From positions 14,072-78,071 of the forward strand of contig JAITQA010000146.1 in the NCBI GenBank assembly GCA_031289145.1: a stretch of DNA of 64,000 nucleotides. The letters run 5' to 3'. Made by a program: the position numbers and the translations under genes. The stretch is from Dysgonamonadaceae bacterium. GTDB lineage: Bacteria > Bacteroidota > Bacteroidia > Bacteroidales > Azobacteroidaceae. The notes under the pieces are model-generated. The model was not told the origin of the DNA. It was given only the letters and a program-made list of their open reading frames with translations, and searched no databases. Of this stretch, positions 35,426-44,339 are shown piece after piece; position 1 is the first letter of the stretch, and each line of letters opens with the position of its first letter.

Positions 35426-36256
35426 ATGAAGAATTTCTTTGCAAGATTATTCACGGGTACTATTTACGTAGCATTTATATGTTGCGGAATAATGGTGAAT
35501 GCTTATACATTTTTCGCTCTTTTCTCTATTGTTATACTGCTGTGTTTATGGGAGTTTTACGGATTGGTAAACGCACAAAAAAGGACAAGGATAAACCCTT
35601 GGTATAATTGTTTCGGAGGGTTTGTACTTTTCTTGAGTACTTTTCTGTATGCTTCGGGCGTTTTCGATTATTTCATCTTTTTTATCTACCTGTTTTACCT
35701 CGTAATCCTGTATGTATCGGAATTGTATGAAAAACAGCAAGACCCGATTACACACATGGCTTATATCTTTTTGGGTCAGTGCTATATAGCTTTACCGGTA
35801 TCTGTGCTGAATCTGATTGCATTTTCAGGCATAGTCGACGGTACGCCTGTTTATAATCCGCTTTTAATCACTTCTTTATTTATTTTTATCTGGGCAAACG
35901 ACACCGGCGCCTACCTGATAGGAATTTTAATCGGTAAACACAAGCTTTTTGAACGCATTTCTCCCAAAAAATCATGGGAAGGCTTTTTTGGGGGCTTACT
36001 GTTTACCCTTGCCGCCTCTTTGGTTTTCGCCTGTTTCGACAAGGAAATTCCCTGGTATCACTGGACCGGTTTATCCTTGGGAGTTGTAATTTTCGGCACC
36101 TGGGGCGACTTGATTGAATCCCTGATAAAACGGACTTTGGAAGTGAAAGACTCCGGACAGGCCTTGCCCGGCCACGGGGGATTTTTAGACCGTTTCGACA
36201 GTCTGCTTCTGGCTGTTTATGCCATGCTTTTCTATGTGCAGTTGTTTTTTGTCTGA
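35426..36256 (+). CDS. cdsA: Phosphatidate cytidylyltransferase
   Basis: WANDTGAY, RISPKKSWEG, KDSGQALPGHGGFLDRFDS. Confidence 0.95.
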   Translation: MKNFFARLFTGTIYVAFICCGIMVNAYTFFALFSIVILLCLWEFYGLVNAQKRTRINPWYNCFGGFVLFLSTFLYASGVFDYFIFFIYLFYLVILYVSELYEKQQDPITHMAYIFLGQCYIALPVSVLNLIAFSGIVDGTPVYNPLLITSLFIFIWANDTGAYLIGILIGKHKLFERISPKKSWEGFFGGLLFTLAASLVFACFDKEIPWYHWTGLSLGVVIFGTWGDLIESLIKRTLEVKDSGQALPGHGGFLDRFDSLLLAVYAMLFYVQLFFV

Positions 36257-36552
36257 TAAATATGCTTACAGTGGCGTAAAAAAATAAGCCTGTCCGTTAA
36301 TAAAGTACCGTCCGCGCAGGACTGCAAGAAGATGGGAAACTTTAGACAATTTATTTCGTAAAATAATAGCACCTCAAAAAAAAATTAGCCAAATTTATTC
36401 CGTTTTGTCTTTATCTCAAAATATTGTATTAAATTTGTATTCAAATGAAAATAATTAGCGCTCATGGTATAAATAATAAAAAAACATAGTAAAAATGCAG
36501 ATATTTAGATAGGTAGTTAAATAAATATTATCTTGTATCTTTCTTCCTTGAA

Positions 36553-36684
36553 GTTTGACGATTTTGGGACACTGAAAGAAATAAGTATGACGTTCACGTT
36601 TAAGGCGTGGACTTAACTTATTTGCTGTGTCAGGTTTCGTCAAACACCTAAGGAAGCGGGTATTTTAAGTATCACGCTTTTTTT
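36553..36684 (+). promoter_or_regulatory. Structured leader: 9-bp inverted repeat, short uORF and terminator-like hairpin
   Basis: GTTTGACGA 36553-36561 pairs with TCGTCAAAC 36637-36645; uORF MTFTFKAWT* 36587-36616; hairpin AAGCG-GGTATT/AGTATC-A-CGCTT 36654-36679 followed by a T run; TAAATTTG promoter box at 36430-36437. Confidence 0.5.
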
Positions 36685-36721
36685 ATTGATATATGGCAGA
36701 AATATAAAAACAATTGATCAC

Positions 36722-37099
36722 ATGGAAAATAGCGAATTGCTCCGGCATATATTCCAATTAGAATCTAAACTATTTAAAAAGACAGAAATATTCCAAATAA
36801 TTGAGTTGAAAGCAGAAAAAAAATGCTTGATTGAAAACGAGCGACAACAATTACGCATGGAAATCCAGTCTGTTTTTATAAATTTTATTCAAACAATCAA
36901 GATAAATTGTCCGGAGATAACAGATGAAGATATTATATTTTGTTGCTTGGTAAAGACCGGATTAAATACTTCCGTCATTTCCTGTTGCATGGGAAATGCA
37001 GACAATAAAGCAGCAAATCAAAGAAAATACCGCATTAAAAAAAAGATTATGAAAGCAAAATGCGATTCTCTTTTCGACCAAATTTTCAATTGCACTTAA
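36722..37099 (+). CDS. Stand-alone LuxR-like C-terminal HTH protein
   Basis: CPEITDEDIIFCCLVKTGL...AANQRKYRIKKK resembles the C-terminal HTH module of Bacteroidota TPR/LuxR-type regulators; no sensor domain; ATG 36722 preferred over TTG 36686. Confidence 0.6.
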   Translation: MENSELLRHIFQLESKLFKKTEIFQIIELKAEKKCLIENERQQLRMEIQSVFINFIQTIKINCPEITDEDIIFCCLVKTGLNTSVISCCMGNADNKAANQRKYRIKKKIMKAKCDSLFDQIFNCT

Positions 37100-39357
37100 T
37101 CCTTTTTCTTTTCTTGTGCAATGATTTCGATAGCTTTTTCCAATACCTCGTCGCGTCCTTCCCGAATCCCCTTAATGGTCGGATTCACTTCAATATCCGG
37201 GATAATACCTACCCTTTGTGTTTCTCTGCCATCGGGATAATAAACGCCAATGCCGGAAATACTTGTACTTAATCCGCCGGGAAGCGTTATTTCGGAAACA
37301 TTTCCATCTGCACCGGCGGTTGTACTGCCAATAACGGTGGTATTATCGCCTGCTTGAAATGCCATTGCAGTATATTCGGATTGACTTATTGTAAATTCAT
37401 TCACAAGTACCACTAATTTTCCCCGGTAAGTTTCTTCCGGCTTAGGAATTTCGAGGTCTTGTGTAAAAGTAAATTCACCCGGATTATTCGCATTCCCTCG
37501 TGTAAATTTAACAAAAGGAGTGGGCGCTGATACAAAATAAGAACCTAAGCTAAACGGAACGAAAGTAGCCGGATAATTGCGAATGTCAATGATAATTCCC
37601 TTAGTATTCTTAAATTCTTTTTTGATAATTGGAATATCTGCATTTTTAATAGATTCCAAGGTAATATAACCGATATTTTCGTTTAAAAATTTATAACATT
37701 TAGCGTAATTCTTTTTATACCGAATCAATTTTCGGTTATATAAGCAAGTCAGTTCTTTCTCTTCTTTTCGTTTGGAATTAGAAGATATATAATTGATATG
37801 AATCCTGTCGCTGTTCGAGCGCAGTAGGTCATTGGCAATATTTCTCATTCTTGCTGCCTCATTTGATGCCGGATAATATTTTTTGATACTGTCAACAATA
37901 GACTCAACGGGTTGTGTATTAATATGGGTAATAATGTCGCCGATTTCCAATCCGGTTTTTTTTCGTATTTTAGCATAGCTATGGACAATTCCTTCAACTT
38001 GGCGATAATCTTTTACGACCCATTTGTTTTCAATCCATTGGAGTTGAACGGGAACCCGCTTGTTTCCTCTTAAAGAATCTATTTTATCATCGCCGTTTTC
38101 CAGGCCGGCATGTGTATCACAGACTGCTCCTATCAGTTGTGTAACAGCGAATTCATATTCCAATTCGTTTTTTGCCGCAATAAATAGCGGGATATATTCT
38201 TTCAAAACCGTATTCCAATCTTTATCTGTCTGATATTTATAGGGGAAAAAATAGTGAATCATGTTCCAATACCGATAAAGCGCCAATAAGCGGAATCCGG
38301 CATCGGGATAAGGCATTTCGGGGTAGTCATTTTCGTGCAGAAACATTGGATTCCCGACATAAGCTGCCGAATGTATATAATAATGGCTACCTTGCTGTCT
38401 GTTCAAATAAATGTTTTGCAATAAAGCCCTTAACTTTCGGTTCATCGTACTATTGTCTATCCAGGATAAATCAGGTTTTAAAAAAGCGCTGTCAGGCGTT
38501 GCCGTACAGGTTTTACAGGCAGGAACATTTCCGTATTTCTTAATCCAATTCAAAAGTATCCTGTCCCGTCGGTTTGTATCATTTATTTTTAAATAATCGG
38601 GAAGTATCCGGAACAGTTCGTAATCCCAATTGTATTTTCCAGCTGCAATTGCCGGGTGATGATATTTTAAAAATCCCCAGATTCTTCCCAATAATTCCAA
38701 ATCAGAAATCTTTTGTTCATCAAGTTCCGGAAAAACAATCTTAGAGCCGGAGTCAAATTTTTTATCTTTTTCGGCAGGTAAAACTTTCGGTTTATAGGGT
38801 TTTAGATTTTGTATATCTTTATCATCAATCGTTATTTTCAAATCGTCTATCCACATTTTGCCTTTCCCGGATAAATGACCTCCCACTACAATTTTTTCTG
38901 TTATGGCAGGATATAAATCCGCCCTTATCTCAAATTTTTTCCATTCGTTTGTGCCTGTCAGCTTCTCCTGCTCCATGTCATTATATGCAACAGAAGGAAG
39001 TATTGCCATCCATAATCCGGCATAACCTTCCGTCACATTTTCGGTTTTAATATATCCGGATAGGGTAATTTGCTTTCCGCCATAATCATGAGGAAGCGTG
39101 AATGCTAAACTATTATCAATCAGCATATTTCCTTTTGATTCGATGACAACAGCGTATTTTCCGCTTTTGACTTCTATTGAATCCAAAGAGATCGTATTGA
39201 TTAAACCATTGTCACTTATTTTCCATCCGACGGGGAATCCATTGTCAATTTTTTCAAAATCCAAGTTAAACTTGCTGTCGGAATCCTTATTTTGGCGACA
39301 AGCTACTAATAAAATCGTTATAACAATGATTGTGAAAATTAAATGCTTTGTCTTCAT
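37096..39357 (-). CDS. S41 family peptidase lipoprotein (N-terminal accessory domain, PDZ-like domain, S41 catalytic domain)
   Basis: Lipobox LLVAC; LGRIWGFLKYHHP, RLLALYRYWNMIHYFFPYK, PDZ-like LEIGDIITHIN, IIDIRNYP, TISQSEY (catalytic Ser motif), TAGADGN, GIIPDIEV; convergent with the HTH gene, stops sharing TTAA. Confidence 0.9.
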   Translation of the reverse strand: MKTKHLIFTIIVITILLVACRQNKDSDSKFNLDFEKIDNGFPVGWKISDNGLINTISLDSIEVKSGKYAVVIESKGNMLIDNSLAFTLPHDYGGKQITLSGYIKTENVTEGYAGLWMAILPSVAYNDMEQEKLTGTNEWKKFEIRADLYPAITEKIVVGGHLSGKGKMWIDDLKITIDDKDIQNLKPYKPKVLPAEKDKKFDSGSKIVFPELDEQKISDLELLGRIWGFLKYHHPAIAAGKYNWDYELFRILPDYLKINDTNRRDRILLNWIKKYGNVPACKTCTATPDSAFLKPDLSWIDNSTMNRKLRALLQNIYLNRQQGSHYYIHSAAYVGNPMFLHENDYPEMPYPDAGFRLLALYRYWNMIHYFFPYKYQTDKDWNTVLKEYIPLFIAAKNELEYEFAVTQLIGAVCDTHAGLENGDDKIDSLRGNKRVPVQLQWIENKWVVKDYRQVEGIVHSYAKIRKKTGLEIGDIITHINTQPVESIVDSIKKYYPASNEAARMRNIANDLLRSNSDRIHINYISSNSKRKEEKELTCLYNRKLIRYKKNYAKCYKFLNENIGYITLESIKNADIPIIKKEFKNTKGIIIDIRNYPATFVPFSLGSYFVSAPTPFVKFTRGNANNPGEFTFTQDLEIPKPEETYRGKLVVLVNEFTISQSEYTAMAFQAGDNTTVIGSTTAGADGNVSEITLPGGLSTSISGIGVYYPDGRETQRVGIIPDIEVNPTIKGIREGRDEVLEKAIEIIAQEKKKD

Positions 39358-39388
39358 AATTGCTTTTTTTTACCATTGAATCAGGTTG

Positions 39389-39532
39389 CAAATATAAGCA
39401 ATAAATGATATAAAATCCAATGCTAAACAAAATTGTTATTGCGTAAAATGTAACCAACTGATTATTAATGTCGGGAAACGTATTATTGTTATTAAAAATA
39501 TTTGGAACTTTGTTTTTTAGCAACTAATTTTG
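39389..39532. promoter_or_regulatory. Divergent promoters for the S41 gene and the lan operon
   Basis: Plus strand: TTTG 39501-39504, 20 nt, TAATTTTG 39525-39532 (consensus spacing). Minus strand: TATATTTG (plus CAAATATA 39389-39396). Confidence 0.6.
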
Positions 39533-39564
39533 TCAACAGGAATGAAAACAGTAAAATTTTCAAT

Positions 39565-40749
39565 ATGGACACCGTCATCAAACAAAAAATTGACTCAATA
39601 GCCAATTGTATTGTAGACAAAGTTTACGCGCAACAGGCCGGAGAATCCTACGGATTATATTCCGGAGAGTGGGGAATATTATTGTTTTTGTTTTATTATT
39701 CAAAGTATTCCGAAAATAAGCAGTATGCTGAATTGGCTGAGTCTTTTGCAGAAACATTATTTGCTCAATTTCCTGAAAAACTCGAATCCCATACTTTTTG
39801 CAATGGTCTTTCCGGCGTTTTATATTTGTTTGAATTTTTGCGTGAAAATCAGTTTATAGATATAAGCGCCGGTCAATCGAATGTAAATGATTATCTTGTT
39901 TTCAAAATGCGGCAGGATATCAGACAACAACATTATGATTTCATGCATGGCGCTTTGGGTGTAGGTTTGTATTTTCTGAAAAAGAAAACCAATACGAAAT
40001 ATGTACAAGAATTAGTCGATTTTTTATACAACACGGCAGAAAAAGATACAGATAATCAAATATTTAAGTGGAAATCTGTCATTGATATAAAAGAAAATAT
40101 TACAGGGTATAATATAGCGCTATCTCATGGAATTTCCAGTATTATTATTTTTTTATCACGGGTCATTAAAAGCGATATGACAGATAAAAAAGTCCATGAG
40201 ATGTTGGTTGGCGCTGTAAATTATGTTTTATCACAGCAACTTGATGTTTTACAATTTGGGGCAAACTTTCCTCAGTGCTCTGTTGAAGGAAACAACTTTC
40301 CTATTAAAAAAAGTCGATTGGCCTGGTGCTACGGTGACTTAGGGATAGGAATCGCATTGTGGCAAGCAGGAAAAGCAATTAATAAAATAGAATGGGGAAA
40401 TAAAGGATTAGCAGTTCTACTTCAAACTACTCAGCGTTTGTCTTTACCTGAAACTTATGTACAAGAGGCCGGAATTTGCCATGGAAGCGCCGGAATAGCG
40501 ATGATATATTATCGTATGTTTCTCGAAACGCAACGAGATGAATTTAACAAAACTACTCAATACTGGATGAAACAAACGTTAAATTTTGCGCAATTTGAAG
40601 ATGGATTAGCCGGATATAAGGCATTGACCGAAGATGGGTGGAAATGTAATTATTCGCTACTGACAGGTATATCCGGTATCGGACTTGTATTAATGTCTTT
40701 TGTTGCAAATACTCAACAAAAGTGGGATGAATTATTTTTATTGTTATAA
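39565..40749 (+). CDS. lanC: Lanthionine cyclase LanC
   Basis: YNIALSHG (catalytic His), KSRLAWCYGDLG (Arg and Zn-Cys), GICHGSAG (Zn Cys-His), DFMHGALG, LLTGISGIGL; ATG 39565 lies just downstream of the promoter. Confidence 0.93.
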   Translation: MDTVIKQKIDSIANCIVDKVYAQQAGESYGLYSGEWGILLFLFYYSKYSENKQYAELAESFAETLFAQFPEKLESHTFCNGLSGVLYLFEFLRENQFIDISAGQSNVNDYLVFKMRQDIRQQHYDFMHGALGVGLYFLKKKTNTKYVQELVDFLYNTAEKDTDNQIFKWKSVIDIKENITGYNIALSHGISSIIIFLSRVIKSDMTDKKVHEMLVGAVNYVLSQQLDVLQFGANFPQCSVEGNNFPIKKSRLAWCYGDLGIGIALWQAGKAINKIEWGNKGLAVLLQTTQRLSLPETYVQEAGICHGSAGIAMIYYRMFLETQRDEFNKTTQYWMKQTLNFAQFEDGLAGYKALTEDGWKCNYSLLTGISGIGLVLMSFVANTQQKWDELFLLL

Positions 40750-40804
40750 ATAAAAAAATAGAGAGTTAGTTAAAAATTTATGTATCATTTAAATTCAATT
40801 TAAA

Positions 40805-41050
40805 ATGAAAAAATTATCATTAAAAAAAGAGGTAATTATGAACCTCGATGAAACTGAAATGAAGAATGTAAAAGGAGGAACAGGAACAGGAACAGCAGTA
40901 CCCGGAACATTGGTATCTCAGTGTCCTGCTTTATGTTATTCTACGTTTTGCACAAATTTGGTTCCTAAAACATGCGAGGGTAGTGGTAGTGCCCTTTGTT
41001 CAGGAGCTACTTCACAGATACGTTGCGCGCCTGTTGCTGTTTTACCATAA
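40805..41050 (+). CDS. lanA: Class I lanthipeptide precursor (25-aa double-Gly leader plus 56-aa core)
   Basis: MKKLSLKKEVIMNLDETEMKNVKGG / TGTGTAVPGTLVSQCPALCYSTFCTNLVPKTCEGSGSALCSGATSQIRCAPVAVLP; 6 Cys, 8 Thr and 6 Ser in the core, none of the Cys in the leader; lies between lanC and lanB. Confidence 0.92.
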   Translation: MKKLSLKKEVIMNLDETEMKNVKGGTGTGTAVPGTLVSQCPALCYSTFCTNLVPKTCEGSGSALCSGATSQIRCAPVAVLP

Positions 41051-41148
41051 GACAAAATGTTATTCTAAAAAATCTTAAATATATATATTGGGATATGAAT
41101 CATAACCTGTATAAAAATTTATAGCGTTTTAGTAATAATTTATTGTAT

Positions 41149-43329
41149 ATGTATAATCCTTTTAATGAGTTTCTTATACGTACACCGTTGCTGCATTTTA
41201 ATTATTTGAATAAAAATAAATTAGAAACAGCATTGTTAAATCAACAGGTTCAAGAGGCTATTTACATAGCCTCTCCTGTTTTATATGTCGAATTACAAAA
41301 ATATTTGAATGGGGAAGTCAACAATGAAAATGAAAAGAAGCGGATAGAATTTGCATTGTATAGATATATCAGTCGAATGTCTTCTCGCTGTACGCCTTTC
41401 GGACTATTTGCCGGATGCTCGGTTGGCACTATTACAGCGGATAAAACCTGTGTTATAGTGGAACATTTTAATCGACATACCAGATTGGATATGTTCTTTT
41501 TATGCACGCTTGTTCAAGAATTGGCAAAACAGCCTGACATTAAAGACGCCTTGCACTATTATCCAAACACTACCCTGTATCAAATAGGCAATAAATACCG
41601 GTATATTGAATATCAATATAGCAATTCACAGCGCATACATCGGATAACTTCCATCGAACGTTCCTTTTACTTAGATGCTATTCTGAAAATGGCAAAAAAA
41701 GGGGTAAAACCGAATAAATTATCTTCATATTTAATTGATAATAAAATAGATAAAGAAAATTTGCTTGATTTTATACAAGAATTAATTGATTCGCAAATTC
41801 TCGTTAGCGAAATAAGCCCTTCCGTTACAGGAGAAGATTTTTTCACAAAAATAATTGCTGTTTTGGAAAAATCACATGCCAATGAAAGCAGAATAGCAAC
41901 TCTCAAAGAAATCCAAGACTCCATCTGCCAATTAGATTCAAACCAAATCAATGCTATAAAGCTATATCAGGACATTATAAGAAAAATTGAAAAAATTAAA
42001 GCGCCGTACGAAGAAAAATTTTTGTTTCAGGTGGATATAACGAGAAACGTAAGAGAAGCCACAATCGAAAAAAGAGTTACGAATGAACTTCAATCGGCAA
42101 TGTCTTTTTTGAATAGAATTACCCCAAACGGAAAGAATGAAACACTAAGTCAATTCCAACAATCTTTTTATAATCGTTATGAAGATCGTGAAGTGTTATT
42201 GATGGAGGCGTTAGATCCGGAAATTGGTATCGGATACCCTGTTAATACAAATACCGGAGATGTTGCGCCTTTATTGGCTGATTTTCATATTCCCAAGCTA
42301 TCAAGTAAAATTTCTAATTTCCAGCGGGATGCTTTTCAATCTGTTTTATTCAAGAAAACGATGGAAGCGTTAGCTCAGCATAAAAGTGAAATTATTTTTA
42401 CCGATGAAGACGTCAAAAAATTTCATTCGAATTGGGCTGATTTGCCATCCACGATGTATTCGATATTTAGTATTGTAAAAGCTGATTCCGAGACATTATT
42501 GATCAAAACAAATGGTTTTTATGGAACTTGTGGCGCGAATTTATATGCTCGTTTTGCTCATACAGATAAAAAAATTGCACAATTTGTAAGTGAAATCACA
42601 AAGAAAGAACAAGAACTAATGCCGGAAAGCATTTTGGCGGAAATAGCGCATTTGCCTGACTCAAGGATTGGGAATATTTTGTCCCGCCCACATCTTCGTG
42701 ATTATGAAATTCTGTACTTGGCTAATTCGGATATGCCCGATAACTGCTTAATCTACATGTCGGACTTATCTATCTCTATTCGACAGGGAAAAATTAATTT
42801 ACGTTCAAAAAAATTAAACAAAGAAATTATTCCTCGATTAACTAACGCACATAATTATCACAATAATACAATGCCTGTTTACCAATTTCTCTGTGACATG
42901 CAAGATCAAAACGGAAGAGGTGGTTTGGTTTTTAATTGGGGCTACTTGGGCAATGAATTAAACTTTTTACCGCGTGTCAAATATAAAAATACTATCATTT
43001 CTTTGGCTACATGGAGCGTTAAAATAGAAGAAATGAAGCATTTATTTTCAATACAAGCAGAAGATGAATTACTATTAGAAACAAGACGGTGGCGCGAAAA
43101 CTTATCTCTTCCACAAAAAGTTTTATTACCGGATGGGGACAAAGAACTGTTTGTTGATTGGGAAAATGAACTAAGTATTCAATCTCTGTTTTCAATAATT
43201 AAAAACCGACAAATGGTATCTTTTAAAGAATTTTTATTCGAACCTGAAAATTCTGTGGTTAGAGACAAAAATGGCGATTCTTATGTAAATGAATGTATTG
43301 CTGCTTTTTATAGAAATAAAGAAAAATGA
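41149..43329 (+). CDS. lanB: LanB dehydratase, glutamylation domain (split LanB N-part)
   Basis: AIYIASP, YISRMSSRCTPFGLFAG, YQIGNKYRY, ARFAH, NILSRPHLRDYEI, IPRLTNAHN, LPRVKY...LATW, LPDGDKELFVD; ATG 41149 preferred over TTG 41143. Confidence 0.92.
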   Translation: MYNPFNEFLIRTPLLHFNYLNKNKLETALLNQQVQEAIYIASPVLYVELQKYLNGEVNNENEKKRIEFALYRYISRMSSRCTPFGLFAGCSVGTITADKTCVIVEHFNRHTRLDMFFLCTLVQELAKQPDIKDALHYYPNTTLYQIGNKYRYIEYQYSNSQRIHRITSIERSFYLDAILKMAKKGVKPNKLSSYLIDNKIDKENLLDFIQELIDSQILVSEISPSVTGEDFFTKIIAVLEKSHANESRIATLKEIQDSICQLDSNQINAIKLYQDIIRKIEKIKAPYEEKFLFQVDITRNVREATIEKRVTNELQSAMSFLNRITPNGKNETLSQFQQSFYNRYEDREVLLMEALDPEIGIGYPVNTNTGDVAPLLADFHIPKLSSKISNFQRDAFQSVLFKKTMEALAQHKSEIIFTDEDVKKFHSNWADLPSTMYSIFSIVKADSETLLIKTNGFYGTCGANLYARFAHTDKKIAQFVSEITKKEQELMPESILAEIAHLPDSRIGNILSRPHLRDYEILYLANSDMPDNCLIYMSDLSISIRQGKINLRSKKLNKEIIPRLTNAHNYHNNTMPVYQFLCDMQDQNGRGGLVFNWGYLGNELNFLPRVKYKNTIISLATWSVKIEEMKHLFSIQAEDELLLETRRWRENLSLPQKVLLPDGDKELFVDWENELSIQSLFSIIKNRQMVSFKEFLFEPENSVVRDKNGDSYVNECIAAFYRNKEK

Positions 43330-44198
43330 AACCCATTCAACGAACTTACATGCCGGGAAGCACCTGGATTTATATCAAATTGTACGTTGGTATCAAAACG
43401 GCCGATGATTTGTTAATTAAAGTGATAGCCCCGATTATAAGAGAATTACAGCGGAAACAAGCTATTGAAAAATGGTTTTTCATCCGGTATTCAGACCCTG
43501 ATTTTCATTTAAGAATCAGATTATTGGTGACCGATTTCATTTATATTGGAGAAATAATCTGTTTGTTCCAAAAAAAACTTGTTTATTGGAACAAAAATAA
43601 CCTTCTGTGGAAGATGCAGTTAGACTCTTACAACAGAGAATTGGAACGTTATGGGAAAAACCTGATTGAAGAAGCAGAATCTGTTTTTTATGCCGATAGT
43701 GAATGTGTCCTTTCAATTATTAGAAAATTAGGAAACAACGAGAAATATCGATGGATGATTGCTTTAAAATTGATTGATAGTTTATTATCTGATTTTCATT
43801 TAAGTATGGAAGAAAAACAAAAATTGATGGAAAACTTAAGCAAATTATTCAAAACCGAATTTGGATTTAACGAATATAACGCTAAATCTTTTAATACTAA
43901 ATTTAGGGAAAACAAAATGATTGTAGAATCCACATTAAATAATATAATTGACGAAAAAGAATTTAATTTTTTATACAGTCCTATAAGAAAGCGTACTAAA
44001 CAGTTGGTATCAATTGTAGGAAAAATCAATAAAAATAAATTGAAGCATATTAATTTGAATGAATTACTAAGCAGCTATCTCCACATGATGCTTAACCGCC
44101 TTTTTCGCTCAAAAAACCGGATACATGAACTAATTTTATACGATTTCATGCGTAGATATTATGCCGGCGAAATGGCCAAATTAAAATATAATAAATAG
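43326..44198 (+). CDS. LanB elimination domain (Lant_dehydr_C / thiopeptide-type biosynthesis domain), split LanB C-part
   Basis: WIYIKLY, WFFIRYSDPDFHLRIR, YNRELERYG, SYLHMMLNR; ATGA overlap with the upstream gene. Confidence 0.9.
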   Translation: MKPIQRTYMPGSTWIYIKLYVGIKTADDLLIKVIAPIIRELQRKQAIEKWFFIRYSDPDFHLRIRLLVTDFIYIGEIICLFQKKLVYWNKNNLLWKMQLDSYNRELERYGKNLIEEAESVFYADSECVLSIIRKLGNNEKYRWMIALKLIDSLLSDFHLSMEEKQKLMENLSKLFKTEFGFNEYNAKSFNTKFRENKMIVESTLNNIIDEKEFNFLYSPIRKRTKQLVSIVGKINKNKLKHINLNELLSSYLHMMLNRLFRSKNRIHELILYDFMRRYYAGEMAKLKYNK

Positions 44199-44339
44199 TA
44201 TCTTACAATGATGCCTTTAAAAAATTGCAACAGTTCAAAACGATACTATCGCCATCAACTATATTAAATAATAATATTTCTTTTATACGCTTTTGCCATT
44301 TTCTCCGTTATTATTAATGTATTTAATATATTGAGTAAC

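Follow-up and report, generated by a model that had tools for sequence, protein, structure and literature searches.

To our knowledge, very few lanthipeptides of Bacteroidota have been characterised, namely the pinensins and two reconstituted products. The class I precursors (LanAs) of Bacteroidetes were reported to carry a leader with the motif LxLxKx5L...GG (Walker et al, 2020, PMC7268733), and their clusters were noted for a split LanB, as in pinensin, and for a C39 protease that is often present (PMC7268733), so that the general architecture of such clusters has already been described. The pinensin cluster of Chitinophaga pinensis, as cited in PMC7268733, contains a split LanB and gave the first characterised lanthipeptide of this phylum. 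Two other sets, ChmABC from Chryseobacterium and RuiABC from Runella, were reconstituted in E. coli, each yielding a product with seven dehydrations and three rings (PMC9993889).

We analysed a stretch of 64,000 nucleotides (hereafter, the window) from an uncultured termite-gut Bacteroidales bacterium whose nearest relatives are Dysgonomonadaceae. A first-pass annotation had marked the ORF at 40805-41050 as the precursor of a polycyclic peptide with up to six rings. From its sequence and context, we put the probability that this ORF is the lanA gene of a class I lanthipeptide cluster at about 0.85. The reading as a polycyclic lanthipeptide is supported by the LanC and split LanB genes that flank the ORF, by the match of its leader and by the pairing of Ser/Thr with Cys across the family. 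Judged by these comparisons, the precursor is of a kind known in Bacteroidota, with a core sequence that is unique.

The lanA ORF lies on the forward strand and its translation of 81 aa consists of MKKLSLKKEVIMNLDETEMKNVKGG followed by TGTGTAVPGTLVSQCPALCYSTFCTNLVPKTCEGSGSALCSGATSQIRCAPVAVLP and the stop codon. The first of these, encoded at 40805-40879, is a leader of 25 aa, and the second, encoded together with the stop codon at 40880-41050, is a core of 56 aa. Translation showed that the leader ends in KGG and that the six cysteines of the core stand at positions 15, 19, 24, 32, 40 and 49, as had been proposed, and a recount returned the same 14 Ser/Thr for these six Cys (T1, T3, T5, T10, S13, S21, T22, T25, T31, S35, S37, S41, T44 and S45). 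The last seven residues, APVAVLP (41027-41047, 3' of the last Cys), had been described as entirely nonpolar and outside any ring, in agreement with the sequence: since they lie past the last Cys and no Ser/Thr stands beyond it, they cannot sit in a lanthionine ring.

In the leader, L4-S-L6-K-K8-EVIMN-L14 ... K23-G24-G25 fits the LxLxKx5L...GG motif at every position. The NCBIfam profile for class I lanthipeptide leaders, NF038153 (lant_leader_L1a), recognised it with 33.8 bits, and with 35.4 in the genome scan (cutoff, 22), and the precomputed Pfam label of this ORF in a public protein collection is PF28317 (Lant_leader_dom). ORFs of similar composition, defined by at least six Cys and at least 14 Ser/Thr within the last 56 residues, are rare in the same genome, where we found 6 among 4,537 six-frame ORFs of 60-120 aa. 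Neither the nisin-type lipid II motif SxxxCTP(G/S)C nor the mersacidin-type TxTxEC, both quoted in PMC7268733, occurs in the core.

The leader also scored 25.0 against TIGR04149 (GG_sam_targ_CFB), exactly the cutoff of that profile, and GG leaders are common to several RiPP classes of Bacteroidota; in the radical SAM cluster of L082, the Cys-rich peptide has a similar leader. These points would favour a peptide that is not a lanthipeptide, in which the cysteines form disulfides or are the target of different enzymes, for instance of the radical SAM class. We regard this as very improbable, given that NF038153 scores higher (33.8 bits versus its cutoff of 22), that the island holds no radical SAM gene and that enzymes for lanthionine formation are encoded on both sides of the precursor.

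Indeed, lanA is placed between an intact lanC and a lanB that is split into two separate proteins. The lanC cyclase gene (39565-40749, forward strand) matched LANC_like over the full profile length (E = 2.4e-44). Its ORF opens with a TTG at 39502, with the ATG at 39565 as the likely start, and the LanC motifs SHG, WCYG and CHG, which aligned with the zinc and catalytic positions in LanC-like proteins of solved structure, are intact. On the other side of lanA, also on the forward strand, the N-terminal part of LanB with the glutamylation domain (41143-43329) matched positions 2-649 of the 649 of Lant_dehydr_N (E = 2.5e-152), and the C-terminal part with the glutamate elimination domain (43326-44198) matched positions 1-255 of the 255 of Lant_dehydr_C (E = 4.2e-65), as well as TIGR03891. 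Upstream of lanC lie a gene for an S41-family peptidase, considered below, and orf137 (36686-37099, forward strand), which encodes a small protein that is a candidate regulator. Counterparts of orf137 with 50-52% identity were conserved at the upstream end of two other lan clusters that contain an S41 gene (L014 and L021). No Pfam family matched it, and its sole family match was a weak one to the C-terminal part of the NCBIfam family BT3442_fam.

A -7 box of the Bacteroidota type, TAATTTTG, is located at 39525-39532 on the forward strand, ~33 nt upstream of the lanC ATG, and a second one, TATATTTG, at 39389-39396 on the reverse strand, ~32 nt upstream of the start of the S41 gene and divergent from the lanC promoter. 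As we found none directly 5' of lanA, this gene is probably co-transcribed with lanC (lanC-lanA-lanB), although the Bacteroidota -7 motif occurs at chance frequency across the window and the boxes represent positional evidence only. A scan for sigma-70 promoters and terminators was set aside; its counts were at the level of shuffled sequences and its promoter type is wrong for the phylum. GC content was 0.31-0.38 over orf137, the S41 gene and the lan genes (window positions 36000-44200) versus 0.40-0.48 in the ftsH and sprA flanks, a dip consistent with an island that entered between cdsA and ruvA by horizontal transfer.

The family sample comprised 46 LanB-anchored loci, from which a leader HMM recovered 45 precursors. 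The nearest lan loci were those of Dysgonomonas and Dysgonomonadaceae genomes, and the usual gene order in related loci was LanC, LanA, LanB_N, LanB_C and C39-ABC exporter. A LanB_N homologue was detected in 37 out of 401 sampled genomes of the order and was absent from the sampled genomes of the same genus. An empty-site comparison did not yield a clean empty site, since even genomes of the same genus differ in the order of their genes upstream of ruvA. The locus itself was confined to the source termite-gut metagenome and to low-depth identical fragments in one other run, with no variant, and no RNA runs holding it were found.

In two loci, lanC and lanB_N are separated by a series of different precursor genes in tandem, 11 in L046 (5484-8431) and 6 in L051 (7009-8590), with near-identical leaders (MRKLKLSLKKEIISDLE...KGG) and a layout like that of a combinatorial library. 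In another two (L037, 316-8984, and L039, 6229-8865), two or three tandem LanC paralogues lie upstream of a single split LanB.

The leaders of the related precursors are alike, but their cores are related neither to one another nor to that of the window, even in the case of L014, with 65% identity between the enzymes. Compared with the medians of the 45 family precursors, the window core is longer (56 versus 41 residues) and richer in Ser/Thr (14 versus 8), its first Cys comes later (position 15 versus 8) and its tail has 7 residues versus 1. It is also much longer than the pinensins, which have 22 residues. A word-indexed search of 5.8 billion proteins for homologues of the core returned the query alone, and an exhaustive phmmer search of 1.84 billion representatives gave no more than two matches, P0002, a spurious repeat protein, and P0003, which was driven by the leader. 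The latter was the sole peptide similar to that of the window past the GG site (GG|TGETG...). No lan enzymes are encoded within 6 kb of it in its locus (L084, 1112-6294), where its neighbours are genes for an M1 aminopeptidase, a thioesterase, a phosphopantetheinyl transferase and an S51 peptidase. The residue that follows GG is variable in the family, being Ser or Thr in ~6 of the 45 relatives by hand count. It had been suggested that Thr1 of the window core could become an N-terminal 2-oxobutyryl group; this is possible, and would need a cut exactly after GG together with dehydration of Thr1, but nothing selects for it.

The first-pass annotation had also drawn attention to Ser/Thr residues standing N-terminal to the cysteines. 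This holds insofar as each of the six Cys of the window core has a Ser/Thr donor of its own 2-7 residues upstream. As evidence from a single peptide, however, the spacing was not significant: 15% of shuffled window cores likewise paired all six Cys with donors at this distance, so that the arrangement in the lone core is what its composition predicts. The signal emerged at the level of the family, where 243 of the 260 Cys in 46 cores had a distinct Ser/Thr donor 2-7 residues upstream, compared with 154 ± 7 (maximum, 172) in shuffled family cores and with 171 when downstream donors were counted. We read this bias towards upstream donors as the directional signature expected of lanthionine formation, to which the window core conforms.

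With regard to export and leader removal, we did not find a C39-ABC exporter/leader peptidase on the 84-kb contig (C18) that holds the window, where ruvA follows directly after lanB_C; approximately half of the related loci do encode one within the cluster. Since neither function is encoded here, the cluster could be silent or need genes in trans. The same genome contains seven full C39-ABC genes. One of them, on another contig (C152:5980-8190), encodes a protein 61-76% identical to LanTs that relatives encode directly after LanB_C, whereas the other paralogues are ~50% identical, and on the basis of this identity the C152 transporter probably cuts at GG. Within positions 4520-13633 of C152, this LanT orthologue (C39-ABC, 736 aa) stands beside an HlyD-type gene and a gene for a thioredoxin-like lipoprotein, and the contig also encodes a 1,227-aa protein that combines Caps_synth, a LanC-like stretch and DUF6625.

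A second class I lan locus is present in the same genome on contig C40 (L002, 1489-1779; L062). Its precursor has a very similar leader, MGTLKKLTLKKEIIANLDNNEMNELKGG, which ends in KGG, and a 68-aa core with six Cys and an acidic tail of 24 residues (ILPEVVITPGEEWDTITPGEEEEG). A split LanB, 59-60% identical to that of the window, is encoded downstream and an erythromycin-esterase-like gene lies upstream, with no LanC on this 5-kb contig. The genes on C152 are like those flanking the lan cluster in L021, so that this stretch may be where the C40 locus continues. In addition, weak leader HMM matches (E ~1e-3) were obtained for GG-leader peptides (MKKINLKEISKIMSESEMKDVKGG...) at C3:789-1139 and C85:599-748, one of which has a Cys-containing core; these probably belong to a different bacteriocin or RiPP family.

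As the second lanA shares the leader type, the most economical reading is that one exporter serves both precursors in trans. We consider it unlikely that the island is cryptic or decaying, with intact genes from which no peptide is made or exported for want of an exporter and a leader peptidase. Such a state would agree with the 84-kb contig on which C39-ABC genes are lacking and ruvA directly follows lanB_C, with the patchy distribution and the absence from the sampled genomes of the same genus, and with the finding that no RNA runs hold the locus. Against it, the profile matches of the four lan genes extend over the full length and the catalytic motifs are intact, a LanT orthologue and its HlyD partner are encoded elsewhere in the genome, and the second lanA shares the leader, so that one exporter could serve both.

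The lan genes of the island are accompanied by the S41-family gene mentioned above (37096-39357, reverse strand), which is divergent from lanC and encodes a lipoprotein peptidase (PF03572, E = 1.7e-20; lipobox LVAC, Cys20). In a structural model of this 753-aa protein (pLDDT 86), we distinguished a beta-sandwich, a helical domain, a PDZ-like domain and a catalytic core. Ser658 aligned with the catalytic Ser of CtpA, and the position of the Ctp Lys is occupied by Ala; Ser658 and His416 were invariant among 26 homologues. The nearest fold to the model was 4GHN, an uncharacterised protease of Bacteroides uniformis, followed by CPAF and Ctp enzymes.

S41 genes were found at or inside lan clusters in five of the 46 LanB-anchored loci, in four arrangements; for example, the gene lies between lanC and lanA in L014, between lanB_N and lanB_C in L032, and upstream of lanC and co-oriented with it in L016 and L034. 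Conversely, when loci were anchored on S41, four out of the nine closest relatives whose context was examined adjoined a LanC gene. The genome of the window has four S41-like genes, and a rough calculation that ignores shared ancestry gave ~0.2 of 46 loci as the chance expectation for such adjacency. This recurrence, the rarity of the gene in the genome and the low GC content of the island argue that the S41 peptidase is a genuine, recurrent accessory of these clusters. In the large 2020 survey (PMC7268733), the tables of common co-occurring families do not list it. In an exploratory comparison with one value per locus and no phylogenetic correction, the cores linked to S41 were longer (median 59 versus 41 residues, p = 0.006) and contained longer Cys-free stretches (17.5 versus 11, p = 0.05). 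That S41 genes recur in lan clusters, variously arranged and with a preference for long cores, is in our view the more useful lead to come from this locus.

Several precursors encoded near S41 genes have particular features. The one in L032 (7001-7270) starts after GG with a Gly/Thr-rich, Cys-free head (GIVGGTGAGTGGVNVSATIGSE), like the TGTGTAVPGT of the window, and the cores of those in L081 and L083 are interrupted by long linkers rich in Pro or Gly. In L082 (1-11468), the neighbour of a LanC-S41 pair is a radical SAM RiPP cluster that encodes two rSAM enzymes and a C39-ABC exporter; this locus also encodes a second S41 peptidase of 516 aa and a GG-leader precursor whose core is full of CGA(A/D/N) repeats. 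S41 peptidases may thus be accessories of several RiPP classes of Bacteroidales.

We considered what the peptidase could do. A role as substitute for the absent C39 leader peptidase is unlikely as a general rule, since L032 and L034 carry S41 and a C39 exporter together, which indicates that S41 is not simply a leader peptidase. A precedent for an S41 enzyme acting on a lanthipeptide is NSR, which removes the C-terminal tail of nisin (Sun et al, 2009, as cited in PMC11251773). NSR shares the S41 family with the gene next to lanC and offers a precedent for cutting an unringed lanthipeptide tail; it differs in being a resistance factor of non-producers, and the window protein, at 753 aa, has extra beta-sandwich, helical and PDZ-like domains. 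NSR was missing both from the PDB sequence matches of the window protein (E <= 0.001) and from its top 50 Foldseek matches, so that we rejected a specifically NSR-like identity and keep the analogy at the level of the family.

Tentatively, and with the odds rather against it, we propose that in Bacteroidales a subfamily of 4GHN-like S41 lipoproteins, with Ser/His in place of Ser/Lys at the active site, are dedicated lanthipeptide-acting enzymes which have been recruited repeatedly into the clusters of producers and act after export on the unringed segments of unusually long cores. If true, the unringed targets in the window peptide would be the 14-residue head TGTGTAVPGTLVSQ or the APVAVLP tail, the S41 protein would be either a second maturation protease or a producer-encoded, NSR-like immunity factor, and the window precursor would be one of its natural substrates.

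A doubtful but reasonable alternative is that the enzyme serves self-protection, degrading or disarming the returning peptide as NSR does with nisin. The secreted product would then keep its tail, which would be one possible point of attack by S41. This would be in line with the precedent of NSR at the family level, with a cluster that lacks immunity genes of the LanI or LanFEG type and with the joint presence of S41 and a C39 exporter in L032 and L034; moreover, about half of the closest S41 relatives have no lan genes beside them, a solitary placement that is frequent for resistance genes. Yet the enzyme has no specific similarity to NSR, the harm that the peptide would do to a Gram-negative producer is an assumption, and the longer cores linked to S41 (59 versus 41 residues, p = 0.006), with their long Cys-free stretches, fit maturation or trimming at least equally well.

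The first-pass annotation had raised the possibility that APVAVLP is a removable follower, and this proposal did not find support in the family, in which tails were rare and not conserved and did not vary in length with the presence of S41. Beyond the last Cys, the 45 precursors had a median of 1 residue, and four of them had at least 7; the window tail is at approximately the 96th percentile of their lengths. The eight precursors linked to S41, with tails of 7, 30, 0, 2, 3, 3, 0 and 0 residues, did not differ from the rest (Mann-Whitney p = 0.58).

It is therefore unlikely that the tail is removed after export to leave a mature peptide of 49 residues. The most plausible agent for such a step would be the adjacent S41 peptidase, acting as an enzyme of the 'tail-specific' type: S41 enzymes are C-terminal processing proteases, and NSR, the family member that clips the tail of nisin, is cited as such in PMC11251773. 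The gene forms part of the island and, in four arrangements, is found repeatedly in clusters of this kind; its product is a lipoprotein and so would meet the peptide only after export, and the window tail is unusually long for the family. These points are opposed by the tail lengths, which do not track S41 (p = 0.58), with four of the S41-linked precursors having tails of 0-2 residues, as well as by the lack of the Ctp catalytic Lys in the enzyme and by the absence of NSR from its sequence and structural neighbours. Furthermore, we found no homologous core in which conservation of the tail could be seen. Many characterised lanthipeptides, including nisin, retain an unringed C-terminal tail, which also counts against its removal here.

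For the lanthipeptide that we favour, the following steps are those of the established class I pathway, from which we infer them. LanB_N would glutamylate Ser/Thr residues of the core via glutamyl-tRNA, and LanB_C would eliminate glutamate to leave Dha/Dhb. LanC would then add the six Cys thiols onto upstream dehydro residues, forming up to six thioether rings. Feasible rings are T10-C15 and S13-C19, which would overlap or be nested, S21 or T22 with C24, T25-C32, S35 or S37 with C40, and T44 or S45 with C49. A point against the lanthipeptide reading is that the Gly-flanked Thr residues of TGTGT may dehydrate poorly under the NisB substrate rules. Up to eight dehydro residues could be left over, and the earlier suggestion that surplus Dha/Dhb could persist in the product thereby gains support, with a precedent of seven dehydrations and three rings in Bacteroidota (PMC9993889). 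By calculation, the unmodified core has a monoisotopic mass of 5,487.63 Da, which 6 to 14 dehydrations of 18.011 Da each would lower to 5,379.57-5,235.48 Da; without the tail, a heptapeptide of 665.41 Da, the product would have 4,588-4,732 Da. A C39-peptidase ABC transporter would cut the leader off after GG25 as it exports the peptide, and the LanT orthologue on C152 with its HlyD partner is the best candidate for this step. By default, the seven-residue tail would be expected to stay on the mature peptide. After export, the peptide would probably be acted on by the S41 lipoprotein peptidase, whose role would be either self-protection or the trimming of unringed segments.

How the locus compares with the described systems can be summarised as follows. 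With the Bacteroidetes LxLxKx5L...GG precursors (PMC7268733, NF038153, PF28317) it shares the leader motif, a core rich in Cys and Ser/Thr and the adjacent LanC and LanB genes; it differs from them in its unique core, which is the Ser/Thr-richest (14) of the 45 sampled and has a late first Cys (position 15), in its seven-residue tail and in a cluster without a C39 exporter. As in the pinensin cluster, glutamylation and elimination are assigned to separate proteins in a Gram-negative Bacteroidota host, whereas the window core is unrelated to the pinensins and its cluster adds an S41 peptidase and has no transporter. ChmABC and RuiABC are likewise LanA/LanB/LanC sets of Bacteroidota, in which the dehydrated Ser/Thr outnumber the Cys and leave free Dha/Dhb; those products have three rings, compared with the six Cys available in the window core. 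To these systems the window adds a unique termite-gut core with six Cys and 14 Ser/Thr, together with a compact, apparently intact enzyme set that could be reconstituted.
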